In this document: positions 12,639 to 48,850 of the stretch, piece by piece | How the letters are laid out: every line of letters begins with the position of its first letter | How positions within the stretch are numbered: position 1 is the stretch's first letter | Assembly: GCA_046563655.1 (NCBI GenBank) | Contig: CM102286.1 | Span: forward strand, 13,454,001 to 13,518,000 | Direction of reading: 5' to 3' | Length of the DNA stretch: 64,000 bases | DNA from: Yuukianura sp. NJ FZ-2021 | Lineage: Eukaryota | The notes under the pieces: generated by a model | What the model was told of the DNA's origin: nothing | The model's input: only the letters and a program-made list of their open reading frames with translations | Database searches by the model: none | Program-made: the position numbers and the translations under genes

Positions 12639-15600
12639 AAAATTTTTGAAAAAAAAAAGTCGGTGTCAAAAAATTTTTCACAAAATTTTCTTGTGTTGAC
12701 AAAATTTTCCAACAATTTTTTTTTCCTGTTCGAACGTCTCCTGTTATTTAAATTAAGCTCCAACTTTCACTTTTATTCAAAACCTACACATTTCTAATTA
12801 ACACCCACCGTTGATCATAATGCTAGCGGAGCTTAAGGTTAATTAGGCATAGTGTTTTAGTCTTTTTAAGTTACAAAGTGTCAATTTCTCTGAAAAAAAA
12901 AGTTCCACTTCTAACCTAATAGGCTTCCTTAGTATGACTAGAAGGTAAGGTTACATTATGCTATGCTTTATTAACTAAGTTGAAGCGGAAGTAACTAAAA
13001 GTAAACAAGGAGAGACACTTTAGCATTACTTGAATAGAGTCCTTGTCTGTTGAAACGCATTGTTCCGTGATGATTAAACTTCCTTCTGGGCTCTTCCCAT
13101 TATTAATTTGACTAAACTTTTTTTAGGTTAGTTTGTTAGGCTAGTTTTTTTTAAGTTAGGAAAGACAAGGTTGGATGAATGTAGGATCAAATGTTTGGAA
13201 AAGTAGAAAGTGAAAGTGGGGGAGACAGGAGGGGTGAGGTGCCAAGGGAGTCGTAACGTGGACAAAAGGCGGATTATGATTATGGACTTGGCCTAAACAT
13301 GACGACGGCGGGAAGATTGATTCGCAATTATTTCTTGATGACATTTAAGAAAGTAGCGGCTTCTTTCCGTAAGTTATTATGCCTTACAACCTTAACTTTT
13401 GTTCAAACTAAAGTGAAAGTAAACTTAATGGTTTAGTAAAAAGAAATAAAAGTGGAGGTTTTCAATAGAATTGGGTGGAGAAAGTTAACATAGTTTTCCT
13501 CCACTTGAGAATACAAAAGGAAAGTGAAAAGTCCTTATTTTAACGTTCACTTGGAAGGAACAAAGTCACAAAAATTTCAAAGAGGTAATCATATTAAAAG
13601 GTTAGTTGAGTAATGGCATATGCTCCTACGTCTGTTCAAACTTTTTGGAAAAAAAGAAAACTAAAAAAAGAGCACTCAAATAACATTTGATTAAACGCCT
13701 ATTCAAAATCTGACGACCGTGACGAGTAATAAATCAAGAGAACTTTACCGCCACCAACCAAACCTTTCCCTGTTCGCTTTTCCATGCTTTTGTAATGCAC
13801 TGCTGTCTAAAAACTGTCCTAGCTTAAATGTCTAACCTAATCGCAACCTAAAACCTACTTTTCACGCATCCTAACACTTAACCTTCTGTAGTTTATGTTT
13901 AATCTAATTTTTTTTAACAATAAAACGATCAGAGATTCCAATTTTTCAAAAATCCTAACAAAGTGCTTAAAAATTGGCCTAATCCTATGAATCTTAAGTT
14001 ACATAACTCGAATTTAAACGAAAAAATTTGTACATCAACGTGCATTCAACTTGGGCTCTAGCTTTAGGTATTAGTTTACACAAACGTTCAAAGCATCTAG
14101 TCGGTGTTTCAATGTTATTGTCAGAAATTGTGAGATTTTTCAAACGGATTCCAATTTTAAAAAAATTTTCAAATTTTTTTTTTTCAAACTGAAATGGGTT
14201 TTTGGAAACTAAACTAGATTGGATAAGGGTAGGTTTAACTTAAGCATGGAATTCTCTTATTTTATCCAATTCTTAAAATGGAGAAAGTGGAAAAGTCTTT
14301 AATTCAAAAGCAGTCAAAATCTTTAGTCTTTTGAGAAACAACTTATTTGTTGTTCCTTTTGTAATTAAAAACTGATTCCTTTGTGTCACTTTGAATTAAG
14401 ACTTGTTCTTTCTCATTTTCTCTAAAGCAGGTTAAAACTGTCAAGATTTTTGGGGAAAGTGGAAGTGAAAGTGGAATCCGATTGTTAAGGGTCCAATGCA
14501 ATGCAATGGGATTGAATTGTCAAGGGATTAGTTCAGTCAGCCAAGAAGAGACAAGGGAGAGGGAAGGTTAGGTTGAAGAAGAACTACATGCAGAACACGT
14601 TCTTATTGGAAACATTATCTCCTGAACTTTCACAAAAACGACAATTTAATTTCTTCATTTTGTTCTTCCAAGGAACCATTAGGAACAAAAGCTTCTCTGT
14701 AGTGGAATGCGGGGCGAAGGTGATTTTATAAAAGAAAACCGAAAACACTTAAGACAGGCTCTTGTTTTTAAATGACAACTTTCTAAAGAGGTTTCAAGTG
14801 AAAGTCAAATGAAACGAGGACACAGAATGACTGTTTTCAGAAGAGCAACTTGAATGTTTCATTTAAAAACCAAAAAAGGCGTTCAATTTAACTGTTTGGA
14901 GAAAAACCTTAAACCGGAATTGTGAAACTTTAAACGCGGCTCTTCTTTTCCTTTGTTCTAAAACTTTTATTTTGTTTTTGAAATTGTTTTTTTGAATGAG
15001 CAACTTTAGAAACTTGAGCATGTAATCAATTTGTCTTTTGTTTTGTCTTGGAGCAATCAAAAGTGAAATAAAAACTGCTACACAAAACTTTCCAGTCAAA
15101 ATTCAATTAAAAATTAACACTAACTTTCACAAGTTGTTCTTACTTTGAACAAGAATGCTACGCATGCGTGCTGGGGCTTCGCCTCTGACTTGTTCATTTT
15201 TTTTTAGCTCAATCAAAACTTTTTCCAAAAGTATGCTGTAGAAAGATATAAGGTGTAATGGAGTTTTAGAAAAATAATATTTCGGAATTTTTAAACTTGT
15301 TGTAAATGAGGAAAATAGATTTTAGGGAATTTTTTGCTTGAATTTTTAACCATTTTTTCTTCAAATTTAGTCAAATTTAATTCCACTTTCTCTGTGGGAT
15401 TTGATTTTCATGATTTCATTTGTTTGAACAATTCTGTTTCCTAAGTTGTTAATTCTAGTATGGAAATATGGAATTATTTAATTATCTTCTCCCTCAAGCA
15501 CCAAATTTTCTAATCCCAAAATCTTTTGATACAAAACACAAAGTGAGAGTTACCACATAGGAAAATAGTGTGCGTTAACATTGATCCAGGATTTACTGAA

Positions 15601-35073: not shown

Positions 35074-35697
35074 CAAAAACTTACCGAAATTTTATTTTTT
35101 GAATATTTTTTTAAATGAACAACGCAATAAATCTCTATACTATTTGTTTAGTTTGTTGTAACAACTACGTGTCAGTCGAATTCAATTTGAGTGCTAAGCA
35201 CTTGGATGTTGATAAAAGCTTAACAGTAGACCACTTGCATGACATCACAAACCTATAACTAAATTAGTCTCCTAATCTAATAAACTATTTTTATAATTTC
35301 AGTGAGTGAGCACTTTCCAGTGCTATTAGAATAACTTTGCATTTCGTGAGCGTCATGTTGTTGAACCAGAATTTTTTTCTGGTTTGCAGAATTACGAAAA
35401 AAAAAAGTCATGAAAGCTTCTGTTTGCAATTTCCAATTTCCCATTCCCCAGAAGTTAATCTCTGTCAAATCACACACAAAGGACACAAAATTTATTCTGC
35501 AACATTTGCGTCATGATCGATGTAAAGTACTTAATAGACGCAACCTTAGCCTCATCCGCAGTATAACTTTTGCCGGAAAAAGTTAAACTTAACATATTTT
35601 AACGAAAACCCACCTCAAAAATTAACCAACTCAACCAACATTAGCAAAATTTTGACTTTTAGCAAAGATTTGCCAAAACTTAATTTATCTTTAAACC

Positions 35698-36504
35698 ATG
35701 TTGTTGCTTATACCAGCGATTGTTTCAACTCTGCTGACTTTTAGTTCTGGACAAACCTACCTCAGAGGTGACACATCCAAGGGCACTTACGAGTTGATTG
35801 ACTCTGTCCTGGGTAAGGGGACTGTCGAAGATCCAGATTGTTCCCACGAGTCTTTTGGTCGTCACATTACTCAACAAGTGGATTCTATTTTAAAACGGGC
35901 AGTATTTCTATTTCACATTCATGTTCAACCGGACAACGATCGCTGCAACACGTTCGATCGTCAACGAAACGAAATCAAAACGTATGATCCCTCTCCAGAA
36001 GAGTTGAAAGGACGCCGTGGAGAAACCGTGTCATTCTCATGGAACTTCTGGCTTGACGCTGCCTTTCAACCATCCAAGGCCTTTACACATATTCATCAAA
36101 TCAAAGACGATGGTGGGGACATTGGCAGTCCAATCATGACAATTACTCCGAGATACAATTCCAATGGAAACAAACTGGAACTGATCCATGTCGATTCATC
36201 GGGGACGAAAACTGTTGTCAAGGTGACCGAGCTCAAGCCGTTTCTGGGCCAGTGGATTCATGTCAAGGAGTCACTGACTTATGAGACCAAAGGGAAGTAT
36301 TCCGTAGTCTTTTCGAATTTGCAAACTGGGAAGGTTTTATGGGAGTACAGTAATACTAACATAGATCTCTGGAGAACTGGCGCTACTTTTGTAAGGCCGA
36401 AATGGGGAATCTACAGAGGACTGGACGACTCCAGTAGATTGAGGGACGAAATCGTAAAATTTGATACGTTTTGTTTGGGAAAAGGAAGTAAAATTTGTAA
36501 TTAA
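35698..36504 (+). CDS. Intronless secreted bacterial-type polysaccharide-lyase-like protein (jelly-roll; heparin lyase I / Polysacc_lyase-like), copy 1
   Basis: 268-aa single-exon ORF with signal peptide; motifs DRQRNEIKTY, FTHIHQIK and RPKWGIYR resemble the RxE, QI(H/K) and KxGIY strands of jelly-roll lyases. Confidence 0.75.
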   Translation: MLLLIPAIVSTLLTFSSGQTYLRGDTSKGTYELIDSVLGKGTVEDPDCSHESFGRHITQQVDSILKRAVFLFHIHVQPDNDRCNTFDRQRNEIKTYDPSPEELKGRRGETVSFSWNFWLDAAFQPSKAFTHIHQIKDDGGDIGSPIMTITPRYNSNGNKLELIHVDSSGTKTVVKVTELKPFLGQWIHVKESLTYETKGKYSVVFSNLQTGKVLWEYSNTNIDLWRTGATFVRPKWGIYRGLDDSSRLRDEIVKFDTFCLGKGSKICN

Positions 36505-37312
36505 GTTCTTGTTTGTGAAAAGTTGAAATAAAACTCACATTCGACCTATAGAAATAAAATATTCAACGACCCTCCCAGTGTTTTTGTAATTTCAAAAGAA
36601 GCATTTTGAAAAAGAGAGCCACACACTGAATTTTTTAAAATTAAAAACGCAATAAACCTCTTTAGTTTACTGTGTAAGTGTAAGTGTCAAGTGGTTTCAG
36701 TTGAGTGTTTAACACTTGGAAGTTGATAAAAAGCTTAACATTACTATTGTTAACTACAGTGCTTAACAGTTGCATGACATCACATTAAACTTTGGGATTA
36801 AATTAAACTCGTAATCTAATTAAATATTTTCATAATTTGAGTGCACGCGTTCGCACTTACTAAAGAGTGGCATTGGAATAACTTTGTATTTTATAAAAAG
36901 AAACATAAATGATGACCTAAAAATTTGAAATTTCGAAGAATCAAAATGAGAGTGGAAAAGGAGTCATGCATGCGGAAGCGTAAACAACAAACTAACCACT
37001 TCCAGGAAATTTTCATATTTTGCAATTCGCAATTTCCCTAGAAGATAATCTCTTTGTCAAACCACAAAAAAGACACAAAATTAATTCTGCAGCATTTACC
37101 GCATGTTTAACCATATTAAACGCATGAAACTTTAGCGTCCTCAGCAGTATACAACTTGCACAGAAAAAAACTGCAATAAAACTTCGAAAGCTTAGTCGAA
37201 TTTAACAAAAGTTTTGCAACACCTAGCATAGGCTAAAGATTACCAAAAGCCAACTCAAGGAATTAAGCAAAACTTAAAAAATTTACACAAAACTAACTAA
37301 AAACCAGTAGTA

Positions 37313-38122
37313 ATGTTCTGTTTTGCTGTAACAATAATTGTGACAGCTCTGCTAACTTTTAGTTCTGGACAAACATACCTCAGAGCAGACACTTCCAAGG
37401 ACACTTACGAATTAATTGACTCTGTCCTGGGTAAAGGCACAGTTGAAGATCCAGATTGTTCACACAAAGCCTTTGGACGTCACATTACTCAACAAGTCGA
37501 TCCTATTTTAAACCGTGCTGTATTTCTATTTCACATTCATGTCAAACCGGACAACGATCGCTGTTCAAAATTTGATCGTCAGCGCAACGAAATCAAAACG
37601 TATGGTCCATCTTCAGAAAATTTGAAAGGTTACCGTGGAGAAACAGTGTCACTGTCATGGAACTTCTGGCTTGACGCTGACTTTCAACCATCCAAAGCAT
37701 TTTCACATATTCATCAAATCAAAGACTACGGTGGAAGCATTGGCAGTCCAATCATGTCATTCGGTCCAAGATTTAAAGCCAAAGGCAACATACTGGAACT
37801 GATTCATGTCGACTCCAAGGGGAAGAAAACTGTTGTCAAGGTGACCGAGCTCAAACCGTTTCTGGGTCATTGGATCCATGTCAAGGAGTCATTGACCTAT
37901 GACACCAAAGGGAAGTATTCCGTAGTTTTTTCGAATTTGCAAACTACGAAAGTCTTGTTGGAGTACAGAAATACAAACATTGACCTCTGGAGAACTGGCG
38001 CTACTTTTGTAAGGCCGAAGTGGGGAATTTACAGAGGACTGAACGATTCAAGTAGATTGAGAGATGAAATTGTAAAATTCGATACTTTTTGTTTGGGAAA
38101 GGGAAGTAAAATTTGTAATTAA
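37313..38122 (+). CDS. Intronless secreted bacterial-type polysaccharide-lyase-like protein, copy 2
   Basis: 269-aa single-exon paralog of 35698-36504 with the same motifs and the identical C-terminus FDTFCLGKGSKICN. Confidence 0.75.
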   Translation: MFCFAVTIIVTALLTFSSGQTYLRADTSKDTYELIDSVLGKGTVEDPDCSHKAFGRHITQQVDPILNRAVFLFHIHVKPDNDRCSKFDRQRNEIKTYGPSSENLKGYRGETVSLSWNFWLDADFQPSKAFSHIHQIKDYGGSIGSPIMSFGPRFKAKGNILELIHVDSKGKKTVVKVTELKPFLGHWIHVKESLTYDTKGKYSVVFSNLQTTKVLLEYRNTNIDLWRTGATFVRPKWGIYRGLNDSSRLRDEIVKFDTFCLGKGSKICN

Positions 38123-40025: not shown

Positions 40026-40261
40026 TAACCTTTAACCCAACGTCGACTAATTTTTATGAAACAAAATTTCAACACAATAATTTTTCAAAATCCAATGCAG
40101 ATTCTAAAACTTTAATGTTTTTATTGCAAAATCGATTCATGTTTTAAACTTTCCGTAAGAAATTTATTTAATTTTACTTTTTCTCAAAGAAATCGATAAA
40201 CACTGGAAAAAATTTGTTTTTACTTTTTGATTTTGATCGAAATTTAGTGTTTAAATTTTTT

Positions 40262-42193
40262 TTAAATTCCTAAAACTGCACCAGGGAGACTTTGTTCCAG
40301 TTGTCCATTTTTTACAACCTGCACTCCGTTGACCCAGACAGACACAATGCCCTTAGGGTATGACACTGGATCGTCGTACGTCGCAGTGTCAGTGACCACT
40401 GGAGTGAACATGACCAGGTCAGCAGCCATTCCAACCTTAATCACCCCTCGATCTGCCAGTCCAAATCGTTCAGCAGCCATTGACGTACACTTCTGCACGG
40501 CTTGTTCAATCGTCATCCACGGTGCAGTCGTATAAGTTAGTGCCATTTTGCCAAGAACTCTCGGGAAAGTGCCGTACATGCGCGGATGTGGTTTTCCCCC
40601 TGCGCGCGGAATGCTGTCACTCCCGACCATTTGAAACGACGACTGGAACACCATTTGCTGATCTTCAATACTTTGTTGAAACATGATCACATTTGACCTC
40701 CCTTCGTCCTTGAGCACCACGGTCATGAAAAAATCAAATTCAGTTTCGTTGCCTAGCAACTGCTGTCCTTCTGGAATCGTCAGTCCTTGGATCGGAAGTA
40801 AATCTGGATGAACAACAGAGTTGATTAGGATATTGTCCCACCCAATCAGAGCCACTTTCGATTCCCACCCAGGTTCAGAGCCACATTCAGTCAAGTATTT
40901 CAGTTCTTCGTAATATTCTGGATCAGTTTCAAGACGTTCCACAAATGCATCGAATCCTCCGGCCATGGCCGATGGCGGCAAAATTTGAAGAATTGTGGAT
41001 GAACCAGCCAGGTATGGATACATGTCCACTTTAATGTCCACTCCTTGGTCAATCGCTGCTTGAATTTTGGCAATCGCTTGAGGCATAATTTCTCCCCAAT
41101 AAGGAACTCCGGCTACTTGCAAGTGAGATAAAAGTCCACGAGCACCACTCATGCGCAGAACTTCAACGAATTCGTCAATACTCTGCAGCAAGTTGCCTTC
41201 ATAACTCCGGATGTGTGCAGAAATGACTCGGTTGTACTTGGCAACTGACGACGCAAGCGCAACCAGTTCGTCCTGCCCAGCATAAGCACTCGGTGGATAC
41301 ACAAGGCCTAAAGACAGTCCAAGCGCCCCTTGTTCCAGTTGCTGTTCAAGTATTTCCACCATTTTCAAAATTTCGGTTTCCGTTGCCAGGCGATTGTCTG
41401 GTCCAACAACGGCTAATCTGATTGGTCCATGGCCCACAAGTGAGCCAACATTAGGTCCAAGGCCGTTTCCCGCCAGAAATGATTTGTAATCGGTGAAATT
41501 TTCAAAAAACGAAGTTGGCTCAATTTCACCTAAAAGCAAGGTTGTTTAAATCGGAATTTTGTTTTCATTAACAGGTTGTGCCATAACTCCTTGTTTTAAT
41601 AAAATTGTTTGTTTTGATTTCTTGTCTGAAAAGGTTGACCTCGCGTGTTAAACAAACGGGATATTGGTGTAAATTGTAAAATTTGTTTTTTTCGAAACTT
41701 TTTGAAAAAAAATAAGGAGTGATGGTATAACCTGTTAGCGTATTTGTATAAATATGGTTATAGCAACCTTGCCTAAAAGTGTGGCTAAGTGCTCCTGAAT
41801 TTCTGGAAGGCTTCCGTTGGGGTAATTGGAGAATCCGCAATTTCCGGTGACCACGGTAGTTACTCCCTGCATAACTTTAGCAGGACTTTGGTGATTGATG
41901 ATGACGTCGACGTCGTCATGCGTGTGAGTATCGATGAATCCCGGAGCAAGGTAAGCTCCATGGGCATCTACAACTTGAGTTATATTTTGACACTCTGAAG
42001 ATGTCAACTGTTGACCTACGTATGTGATTTGACCTGCCTGGACACACACTGACCCTAAAAAAGACGGTGAACCTGTTCCGTCAACAATTTTGGCGTTTTG
42101 GATAACAAAATCTCCGGAGACAGGCTGGTTCATGGTGAAGATGTTAAGAAAGAAGAAAAGGATAGAGAAAAATACTGATCTTTTCCAGGCCAT
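40262..42193 (-). CDS. N-acyl-D-amino-acid deacylase (D-aminoacylase, amidohydrolase family), bacterial type; 2 exons (42193-41773, 41529-40262; 562 aa)
   Basis: IVDGTG; APGFIDTHTHDD; GVTTVVTGNCGFS; SAHIRS; LSHLQ; GSDS; KPHPRMYGTFPRVLG; RFGLADRGVIKVGMAADLV; VWVNG. Hydrophobic N-terminal extension. Confidence 0.9.
41529..41779. mobile_element. Non-autonomous DNA transposon (MITE, 8-bp TSD; hAT- or P-like) forming the intron of the D-aminoacylase gene
   Basis: TSD CCTAAAAG at 41529-41536 and 41772-41779; TIRs CAAGGTTG (41537-41544) and CAACCTTG (41764-41771); subterminal inverted repeat 41569-41597 vs 41709-41737 (25/29 identical). Confidence 0.85.
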
Positions 42194-42737
42194 TGTTTAC
42201 CTTGAACTTTTTTGTTTGAACAGCTTGATTAATGTTGTTTGAAAAAGTAATCGCAGAAAAACACTAGTATAACAGTGAGATTTAAGTTAGTTTTAGATTA
42301 AAGTTATCATGGAAGTGTAGCATAGTTTATGTACTTGCAGTACTGTCAACTATTGATTATCTCCTGTTGTCACAAATTTCTAATCAATTGTTAAAATTTC
42401 TTCAAAATTGAACTTCAATTCAATTACAATTCGGTCATGATTTTCCAAAAAAAAAATTTATAATAATTTCCACATTTAAGTTTTACTTTGACCAAGAGCA
42501 AAAGCTGATTTTTCTAAAATTCGAAAGTTTTTCGAACGAAATGCCACGTTATGCCATAAAGTTTTAAAATTTTGTTAAACTTTGCCCTATTTGCTAAAAT
42601 TGAGTATCAATTTTACCCACTTTTGGCGTTTTGTCGAAATAATTTTGTAACGTTTCAATAAATTCTTAAAATTGTATTTTTAATTGTTTGAGTCAATTTT
42701 TTGTTAATACAAATGAGTCATTGTAACTTTAGTTTTT

Positions 42738-47158: not shown

Positions 47159-48850
47159 CTATAAGGGCTCTTGATCTTCTTCGACTTCTTCTTCCTCTTC
47201 CCCTCCTTCGCCGAGTTCATACAGAAGTTCAACAAGCTGGTCGTCTACAGGAGCTACAGCGGGCTCGGGCGGTCCGTCAACTGCCGGCTCAGCTAACGGC
47301 TCATATTCGACTGGAAGTTCTTCAGCTACTGGCTCAGGTTCGGCTGGAGGTTCTTCAACCACCGGCTCTGGTTCCGGTTCGGCTGGAACTTCTTCAACTA
47401 CCGGCTCAGGTTCAGGTACCGCTGGTGGTTCTTCAACAACGGGCTCCGGCTCTGGTTCGGCTGGAACTTCTTCAACTACAGGCTCAGGTTCGGGTGGAGG
47501 TTCTTCAACTACTGGCTCAGGTTCGGGTGGAGGTTCTTCAACAACGGGCTCAGGCTCTGGTTCGTCTGGAGGTTCTTCAACTACCGGCTCAGGTTCGGCT
47601 GGAACTTCCTCTGCCGCCTCAGGTTCGGCTGGAATTTCTTCAACCGCCAATGGTTCGTCGACGATTGCCTCTGGTTCAAAGAATTCTGCCCTGAGGGGCT
47701 CCTGCCCGTCATCGTCCAAAGTAGTTTCAAGAACAACTTCGTCCTCTTTGTCGGGACCTTCAGCGATCCATGCAAGCTCCTTTGGCATTTCTTCAGCGAT
47801 GACCTCAGTTTCAACCGGCTCTTCGGCCAGAACATCTTCCGGCTCAGCTTCAAGTGGCTCTTCGGCCAAAGCCTCCGCCTCAGCTTCGCCCAATGCAAAT
47901 TCTTCTACTGGTGGTTCCTCGTCCATGGCGGCTTCTTCAATCGGTTTTTCTTCCTCATTTTCACCCAACTCCGCAGCAGTTGTGTCAACCATTTCCTTTT
48001 TCTTGAGAAAATCTTCGTCAGTGATTGGCTCTGTCCCGGTATCCATAATTGTCGTAGTGGCAGCATCCGCAAACGTTTTGCAATTCGTTGTTAACGCTGG
48101 AGCACTGCATGACCGAGCTGCGACTTTGCTTTCCACGCACAATTCTGGACAAGTATTCTCACTTTCAGTCAAAAAGTTTAGAAATGCTGGGAGACTCATG
48201 ATCCGAAACATGCTGGAAGGTTGTGGCGGAGGTTCATCGGGACATCGCAGACACTGGTTGTCATACTCCGTTTCCGTGAGGTATTTACCAATAGTTGGAA
48301 TGGCGGTGGCCATTCTCTCCAAAAGTCGATCGAAGAATGCCACGATATAGAGATCATCTGTTTCTCCTGGAACGCAGGCGCCCGGGATTTCTGGAGCTGG
48401 TTCTGGTACAGGAACTGGTTCTGGTTCTGGTTCTAGTTCCATTTCAACCATTGGTTCTGGTTCTGGCTCCGGTTCCACGACTGGTTCTGGTTCGGGCTCC
48501 GGTTCAGGTTCAACTTCTGGTTCCGGTTCTGGTTCAACCTCTGGTTCAGGTTCGGGTTCGGCAACTTCATGAATGGAGTCATCTGAATTGTCATGAATAA
48601 GAATGCTCTCTACATCATGAGGTTGAAGGTTCCGAATGTCATTTACTTTAAATTGGCCAGTCATCGCCTTTGATTCTAACAAAATAGTGGACACGTTGGT
48701 CACTACCATCGTTAACTACCACCATACCACTATACTGGCCAGTATACTGCCAGCAGTTTTAAGAGAATTCGAAAATATTTGGAAGTAGTACTTACGACTT
48801 TCTAAAACTACTTCGTCCAGCTCCTCTTTCTGGTCCGTCGGATCGTCCAT
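47159..48850 (-). CDS. Orphan Glu/Pro-repeat acidic protein with a central Cys-containing domain (2 exons: 48850-48796, 48675-47159)
   Basis: Exon 1 [18 protein letters not shown] ends at a gtaagt donor and joins in frame at a ttttgttag acceptor to the 516-codon ORF. Confidence 0.8.
47290..47650 (-). repeat. Coding tandem repeat (EE(P/V)P(A/P)EPEP(EP)VV-like units, ~36-42 nt)
   Basis: About 8-9 imperfect copies in the translation; a second EPEPEV array lies at ~48400-48565. Confidence 0.85.

Follow-up and report, generated by a model that had tools for sequence, protein, structure and literature searches.

Within a 64,000-nt stretch of DNA (contig CM102286.1, positions 13,454,001 to 13,518,000; hereafter the window, whose coordinates are used throughout), a D-aminoacylase-type gene on the minus strand is broken by a 235-bp element (41537..41771) with the structure of a DNA transposon. 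At this single locus, a multicopy inverted-repeat element is very probably removed from the transcript as a scarless GC-AG intron. We put the probability that the insertion allele is spliced, and that the gene thus carries a transposon-born GC-AG intron, at about 0.78. The observations that carry this reading are direct ones: the anatomy of the insertion, the existence of a multicopy family, the scarless restoration of a conserved protein, and a contig from which exactly 243 nt have been removed. An earlier note on this DNA, made from the sequence alone, had described the same arrangement, and our repeat search and analysis of open frames found all of its coordinates and sequence features to be correct.

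The insertion and its splice signals

The element is a non-autonomous, terminal-inverted-repeat element resembling a miniature inverted-repeat transposable element (MITE), and it has no coding capacity. Its limits were placed by the repeat search, by over-deep bins in the public sequencing runs X1, X3 and X5 (described below), and by other copies, which diverge from the window copy at 41537 and after 41771. On the minus strand, which is the coding strand here, its two ends are CAAGGTTG on the donor side (41764..41771) and CAACCTTG on the acceptor side (41537..41544). These terminal inverted repeats match perfectly (8/8; repeat I3), and the donor-side terminal word also ends other copies in the runs. 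Flanking the element on the same strand are two copies of the 8-mer CTTTTAGG, copy 1 at 41772..41779 and copy 2 at 41529..41536, which are 100% identical and lie 243 nt apart (repeat D9). The coding strand at the break therefore reads ACA, CTTTTAGG, the element CAAGGTTG...CAACCTTG, CTTTTAGG, TGAA. Inside the ends is a subterminal inverted repeat with 29-nt arms at 41709..41737 and 41569..41597, assigned to neither strand, which are 86% complementary (25/29; repeat I1). The acceptor-proximal arm agrees, with 0 mismatches, with the motif that we take to be the majority form of the family. The donor-proximal arm is the part of the family most over-represented in the runs (bin 41691-41761) and contains an in-frame stop, so that the unspliced reading frame ends at 41737-41735. 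The perfect ends, the perfect duplication and the multicopy signal in the runs bear out the earlier claim of a transposon insertion flanked by an 8-bp target-site duplication.

We scanned the entire window for 8-nt direct repeats abutting 8-nt perfect inverted repeats, with 50-2000 bp between them, and used 100 dinucleotide-preserving shuffles as the control. The scan returned 3 matches, compared with a shuffle mean of 0.17 (maximum 2; at least one match in 16/100 shuffles). The matches were the element in the D-aminoacylase-type gene, a low-complexity A/T match, and a candidate element at 14693-15395. Because the insertion structure falls exactly at the sole interruption of a long reading frame, its occurrence by chance is even less likely than the scan measures. 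The element at 14693-15395 is a second candidate transposon of 687 bp, whose 8-nt inverted ends, AGTGGAAT, match perfectly and are bordered by a perfect direct repeat of 8 nt, TTCTCTGT.

Removal of the insertion restores a complete gene. Exon 1 (41773..42193, minus strand) begins with an ATG at 42193-42191 and holds 140 codons plus the first base of a glycine codon, including a signal-peptide-like start and a metal-binding HxH region. Exon 2 (40265..41529, minus strand) is an open frame that supplies the last two bases of the glycine codon and 421 further codons, followed by a stop at 40264-40262. When 41773 is joined to 41529, the frames are open in both exons and the spliced product is a 562-residue protein. 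We aligned this protein with 45 homologs (P0001-P0040 and five named bacterial proteins), taken from the best 120 matches of the protein search described below. In 45/45 homologs, the junction HLATLLG/EIEP (slashes mark splice junctions) aligned gap-free with HLxxLLG plus one of the residues E, N, D, S, T or Q, which agrees with the earlier claim that splicing regenerates LATLL-G-EIEP without a scar.

Because the duplication is 8 nt long, nine registers all remove the same 243 nt. The ends of these registers are CT..TG, TT..GC, TT..CT, TT..TT, TA..TT, AG..TT, GG..TA, GC..AG and CA..GG, and only one of the nine is canonical, with GC at 41772-41771 and AG at 41531-41530. This register defines the predicted intron (41530..41772, minus strand), with the donor TAG/GCAAGG and the acceptor CCTTGCTTTTAG/G; it equals the element plus one duplication length, as had been proposed. 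We also enumerated all GT or GC donors in 41900-41530 with all AG acceptors down to 41400, requiring at least 540 open codons. Seven donor and acceptor pairs were in frame, and only GC 41772 with AG 41530 restored LLGEIEP. The only GT donor, AAG/GTTGCT at 41767, had been dismissed in the earlier note as giving the wrong frame. That holds for every acceptor except a weak one at 41519, with which the GT is in frame and yields the altered protein sequence LLGKPTS, and we rejected this pair.

The splice signals are divided between the duplication and the element. At the donor, duplication copy 1 gives exon positions -1 to -7 and the first intron base, G, and the inverted end of the element gives the bases from +2 onward (+2 to +9 being the terminal repeat itself). 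At the acceptor, copy 2 supplies the AG, most of the pyrimidine tract and the first base of exon 2, and the acceptor-side inverted repeat contributes to the remainder of the tract. The donor consensus is matched at all core positions but the GC; GC donors require a strong remaining consensus. By its GC and AG ends, strong donor context and pyrimidine tract, the intron would belong to the U2-type GC-AG class. Since the ends of the element are inverted copies of each other, identical splice signals are expected in either orientation.

From these features we propose how the intron could have arisen. In a springtail-like hexapod, a short non-autonomous DNA transposon, probably hAT-like, would have entered a D-aminoacylase-type gene acquired by horizontal transfer, landing within its coding sequence at a target word that ends in AGG. 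After duplication of this word, copy 1 and the first bases of the element would together form the GC-type 5' splice site, TAG/GCAAGG. The last bases of the element and copy 2 would form CCTTGCTTTTAG/G, a pyrimidine tract followed by the 3' splice site. The spliceosome would then excise the element and one duplication length, 243 nt from 41772 to 41530, leaving an mRNA the same as that of the uninterrupted gene and therefore an unchanged enzyme. Pairing of the inverted repeats in the RNA may draw the two splice sites together. In a folding prediction, the 243-nt intron RNA forms one long hairpin, in which the first nine bases pair with bases just before the acceptor tract. Its minimum free energy is -47.2 kcal/mol, compared with -27.2 ± 3.5 in 200 shuffles (z -5.64), and 0 shuffles were equally stable.

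The same structure could in principle have another origin, namely an older intron that the element entered later, or a repeat left by break repair and not by transposition. Introns often harbor transposons, and short direct repeats flank some repair-generated introns. In this gene, however, the intron consists of the element and one duplication copy, without any other intronic base; the repeat abuts perfect inverted ends, and other copies end at the same termini. At the protein level, all of the 45 aligned homologs are uninterrupted at this position. An older intron merely entered by the element is ruled out because only the element and one 8-nt word are extra relative to the family, and we consider this origin as a whole to be extremely improbable.

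The element family and the joined contig in public runs

Five public runs, X1-X5, hold matching sequence. All are labelled "DNA?", which is a tool's guess; X1-X4 derive from one sample of organism A, and X5 derives from organism B in another study. We compared the Logan contigs of X1, X2, X3 and X5 with positions 40200-42300 at 80% likeness, and summed contig depth in bins across the element (41478-41548, 41549-41619, 41620-41690 and 41691-41761). Summed contig depth is not a copy number, and we use it only as a sign of many copies. In X1, the element bins had depths of 2174, 2632, 371 and 10224, compared with 309 and 123 in the adjoining exon bins. The corresponding values were 524, 883, 138 and 2971 against 38 and 71 in X3, and 31, 41, 3 and 227 against 0 and 7 in X5. 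The element is over-represented 15-75 times in these three runs. An alternative base at 41721 was present in 38 (X1), 30 (X3) and 21 (X5) contigs. Further, 14 (X1), 11 (X3) and 9 (X5) contigs leave the window copy at 41753, reach the same terminal word and then continue into unrelated flanks, and some contigs have unrelated sequence right before 41537. Because the ends are over-represented and other copies break off at the same termini, we conclude that the element belongs to a multicopy family. The boundaries of these loose-ended contigs also indicate that the mobile unit stops at the inverted-repeat ends and that the 8-nt word is the target duplication.

The duplication length and end motif suggest a hAT-like element. 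Target duplications of 8 bp are typical of hAT elements and also of P elements, and ends beginning CAAGG may be in keeping with the hAT end pattern. Within the window we found no autonomous partner with the same ends encoding a hAT transposase, and no second copy of the element, either by BLASTN with a word size of 7 or by a search with two end and subterminal motifs allowing up to 3 mismatches. Viral contigs gave 0 matches to the element motif. The subterminal-motif scan of metagenomes returned two loci, L001 (GC fraction 0.60, 21 nt) and L002 (23 nt), which are without inverted ends and were taken as chance matches. Gene context was examined for one copy, the insertion in the D-aminoacylase-type gene.

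Contigs crossing from the gene into the element show that the insertion is carried by more than one haplotype. Record 22 of X3 (41604-41995, depth 58.9) and record 29 of X5 (41601-42030, depth 2.9) both cross the edge between exon 1 and the element with far more than 31 nt on each side. They differ from the window by 8 and 11 substitutions and by 13 and 21 gap letters, respectively, largely inside the element. Record 5 of X1 (41536-41743, depth 128.8) has zero differences from the window copy. That divergent haplotypes and two studies share the insertion argues against a very recent event. In addition, the window copy departs from the majority variant at 41713, 41721, 41726 and 41741, so it is no recent duplicate of the most frequent form. 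The earlier note had described the element as caught in place; the insertion itself is real, but its recency was overstated.

The gene that carries the insertion appears to be under constraint. We listed 40 contig differences, with 89 more outside the listing, and 32 of the 40 fall in coding sequence. Twenty of these 32 are synonymous, where 23% would be expected at random (one-sided binomial p 2.6e-06). Among the 12 listed replacements, eight lie in codons 8-27, the signal-peptide region, and differences in the mature enzyme are mostly synonymous. An indel polymorphism at 41997-41999 in exon 1 is present in part of the X3 contigs and in all of the X5 contigs covering the site, including the insertion-bearing X5 haplotype; with a total of 3 nt, it stays in frame. 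We also observed very high haplotype diversity in the signal-peptide region of exon 1 (42034-42206), where the X1, X3 and X5 contigs differ from the window at 14-16 positions per ~173-260 nt.

Run X2 contains a form of the gene without the element. Record 14 of X2 (581 nt, depth 54.8) joins 41334-41528 to 41772-42157 and skips the exact 243 nt of the predicted intron, with 8 letters that fit on either side. Record 15 of X2 (41587-41783) is the retained form, with 0 differences from the window and a depth of 2.69. Neither a 243-nt skip nor an empty-site contig was listed in X1, X3 or X5 (0/3). X2 also differs from the other runs in its coverage. Depth in the three inner element bins is 6.4, 4.8 and 11.7, compared with ~55 on the exons. 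Cover in X2 is absent from 42188 upstream, just past the start codon, where X1, X3 and X5 continue. At the other end of the gene, record 9 of X2 extends 59 letters past 40200, to ~40141, which is ~22 nt beyond an AATAAA polyadenylation-type signal read in the 3' untranslated region (40163..40168, minus strand). Finally, X2 contigs total 52 million letters, compared with 236 million in X1 and 167 million in X3, at a gene depth in X2 of ~55. We read X2 as RNA because of the under-representation of the element, the lack of upstream cover, the end past AATAAA and the small contig total at this depth. A multicopy family would be expected to show up in genomic DNA from any individual. All four features fit a transcriptome and none fits whole-genome DNA, which makes it likely that X2 is RNA. 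Record 14 is then read as spliced mRNA and record 15 as an unspliced fraction of ~5%. We infer that the joined contig is RNA from the insertion-bearing allele and that the removal was made by the spliceosome. The earlier note had called for a search for the junction 41773/41529 in RNA; the joined contig supplies the exact junction, and its standing as RNA is the probable part of the result.

The guessed label of X2 would instead favor a reading in which the run is genomic DNA and the joined contig comes from a precise excision or from an intron-less retrocopy. Against this reading, a multicopy element that is over-represented in the DNA-like runs is under-represented in X2, and the upstream gap in cover and the small contig total at high gene depth are likewise unlike DNA. 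The joined form is also absent from the X1 and X3 contigs, which come from the same sample. Cut-and-paste excision usually leaves footprints rather than scarless sites, which weighs against an event at the DNA level. We consider it very unlikely that X2 is DNA.

Several observations do weigh against splicing of the insertion allele. X2 carries its guessed "DNA?" label, and no listed run is on record as RNA. The X2 joined contig represents a haplotype other than that of the window, showing 8 differences over 581 nt; at 41942 it matches the window, unlike every X1, X3 and X5 contig. Because no DNA contig ties this joined haplotype to the insertion, its transcripts could come from an empty-site allele. 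The lack of an empty-site contig in the other runs carries little weight, since contigs cannot demonstrate absence and those of X1 leave gaps around 41813-41837. At the exon 2 edge, record 21 of X3 (41400-41558) crosses with only 22 nt in the element, where the bridging rule was 31 nt. Lastly, the stem predicted to cover the 5' splice site could hinder U1 binding.

These points could be explained if the insertion were a segregating null allele, such that the joined X2 contig came from the empty-site allele and the retained form were a nonsense transcript of the disrupted allele. The distinct haplotype of the joined contig, which is unique among the four runs at 41942, and the high haplotype diversity at the locus are in line with this explanation, and the depths of 54.8 and 2.69 are compatible with nonsense-mediated decay of an unspliced allele. 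Yet empty-site contigs number 0/3 in X1, X3 and X5. The insertion is old and sits on at least two divergent haplotypes from two studies, yet all 562 codons remain open on the haplotype that carries it in the window, and the differences among haplotypes are mostly synonymous. The insertion also brings a near-ideal GC donor and a good acceptor. We judge a null allele to be unlikely, and we favor splicing of the insertion allele.

The interrupted gene, its host and its neighbors

By sequence, the spliced protein belongs to the N-acyl-D-amino-acid deacylase (D-aminoacylase) family. Exon 1 matches Pfam Amidohydro_3 (E 1.6e-08, residues 73-122) and exon 2 matches both Amidohydro_3 and Amidohydro_1, with Amidohydro_3 above its cut-off on both exons. 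The best NCBIfam match for exon 2 is PRK09061 (E 4.4e-35), which falls under the curated whole-protein cut-off, as expected because the query is only part of the protein. The closest solved structures are 3gip (N-acyl-D-glutamate deacylase) and 1m7j (D-aminoacylase).

A search of a large protein collection gave 2905 proteins at E <= 0.001 among 8000 scored candidates. The best 120 of the 2905 are nearly all metagenomic or bacterial and named N-acyl-D-amino-acid deacylase. The top match among these 120 is P0001, an unnamed metagenome protein (65%), and arthropod relatives among them come from Bradysia coprophila (56%) and two Orchesella species (55-56%). None of the best 120 was an annotated protein from the window's own species with 100% identity. 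We built a quick maximum-likelihood tree of the spliced protein and the 45 homologs, with a midpoint root and support from the Shimodaira-Hasegawa-like approximate likelihood ratio test (SH-aLRT) only. The window protein is sister to P0001 (support 99), and the two lie inside a 24-row group (support 99) with Orchesella and Bradysia-type sequences, which adjoins a group containing a Verrucomicrobia protein. This topology appears compatible with a bacterial-type gene resident in arthropods. The coding sequence has no interruption besides the element, and the homolog search, alignment and tree together support the earlier description of a bacterial-type gene with a single coding intron. In the literature searched, we found no report of horizontal transfer of a springtail D-aminoacylase, and the main texts of the papers on the Orchesella and Folsomia genomes make no mention of the enzyme. 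Separately, the Orchesella cincta protein P0032 lacks 27 residues starting six positions past the intron-homologous site, which the Orchesella dallaii protein P0024 keeps; an artefact of the gene model, or an intron close by in Orchesella, might account for this difference.

The gene sits among ordinary animal genes. Other long frames in the window carry animal domains, namely a P66 coiled coil, a c-SKI SMAD4-binding domain and a pancreatic-type lipase. Over its first 200 residues, the Ski-like frame shares 74% identity with a protein of the springtail Allacma fusca, and other named matches, across arthropods, are at 45-57%. On the basis of the Allacma fusca match, the host is a hexapod close to springtails, in line with the arthropod host assumed earlier.

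A few kb from the D-aminoacylase-type gene, two long frames lie in tandem on the plus strand (35695-36501 and 37301-38119) and match Pfam Polysacc_lyase (PF14099) at E 3.1e-07 and 1.2e-05, the second not reaching the gathering score. Both may represent additional genes of microbial type within this animal locus. On the minus strand, a long 518-residue open frame at 47162-48715 weakly resembles PF05887, a proline/acidic repeat family, with a score under the threshold. Because long frames on the opposite strand overlap it, this frame is probably a low-complexity repeat.

Comparison with known introners

The origin of new spliceosomal introns is a long-standing question. In introners, the splice signals come partly from a MITE-like element and otherwise from the duplicated target (PMC11282704). 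The two published screens found transposons that make introns almost exclusively in aquatic, unicellular or fungal species (PMC9860276, PMC12130899). Gozashti et al. 2022 reported introners in 175/3,325 genomes and in only two animal groups (PMC9860276). A 2025 screen of 8,716 genomes reported 201 introner-bearing species, of which >98% were aquatic, unicellular or fungal, and added land plants and a sea urchin (PMC12130899). For the three springtails Folsomia candida, Allacma fusca and Orchesella cincta, its species table gives 0 introners and 0 families (PMC12130899). In the open-access literature, to which our search was confined, we found no report of an introner-type element in a hexapod.

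The locus described here has the hallmarks of an introner: its intron boundaries are transposon ends and a target duplication, there are many similar copies in the genome, and, with X2 read as RNA, the element is correctly removed from the transcript. The mechanism is known rather than new; what is new is the springtail-like host lineage, for which published screens listed none. In a land arthropod, the whole event is visible at single-base resolution, from the target word and its duplication to the GC donor and acceptor made from the ends and the apparent spliced product, and it offers a concrete route by which a transferred bacterial-type gene gains its first intron.

The earlier note had gone further and suggested an intron-generating transposon family. 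Such a wider claim would be that this is a true introner family, active in a soil-living hexapod, which may have seeded several introns, including in bacterial-derived genes. Because the inverted ends begin CAAGG, any target ending in AGG would yield a ready GC-AG intron in either orientation, which suggests a simple rule for a spliceable insertion. If true, terrestrial arthropods would have their first example of an introner family, and such elements would help bacterial genes take on eukaryotic structure. We regard this wider claim as tentative and, on present data, rather doubtful.

Splicing of inserted transposons is also familiar from maize and Drosophila mutants, in which single elements are spliced out via sites at or near their ends, usually imprecisely or in part. 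In contrast to those mutant alleles, the allele described here is apparently the normal one, maintained by selection, and the element is removed exactly.

Closer parallels are found among introners. Like those of Micromonas pusilla and similar MITE-like introners (PMC11282704), the element is short and non-autonomous, has inverted ends, takes splice bases from the duplication and is removed without a scar. Those introners differ in having 3-nt duplications, thousands of intron copies and algal hosts (PMC11282704). The insertion described here has an 8-nt duplication, two splice sites that each combine bases of the duplication and the element, a GC donor and a hexapod host, and a single intron is documented. 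The dinoflagellate introners of Symbiodinium and Polarella share a transposon origin and GC-AG ends (PMC11282704). In dinoflagellates, however, GC-AG is dominant genome-wide and the families are huge (PMC11282704); here one locus was read, with no sign of a relaxed spliceosome or of a genome-wide burst. The earlier note had held that introners often use GC donors, which has support for the dinoflagellates (PMC11282704) but not as a general rule, and the term "GC-AG" does not occur in the main text of either of the two screens in the Proceedings of the National Academy of Sciences (PMC9860276, PMC12130899).

The element also resembles introner families classified as hAT, such as one in Salvia splendens, in which terminal-inverted-repeat DNA transposons of a superfamily with 8-bp duplications make introns, according to Gozashti et al. 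2025 (PMC12130899). The hAT assignment there was by homology and transposase domains, whereas ours is by duplication length and end motif alone. Finally, the tunicate Fritillaria borealis is likewise an animal host with introns that come from MITEs (PMC11282704). Its MITE introns have non-canonical ends and require a modified spliceosome (PMC11282704), whereas the element described here provides standard GC-AG signals.

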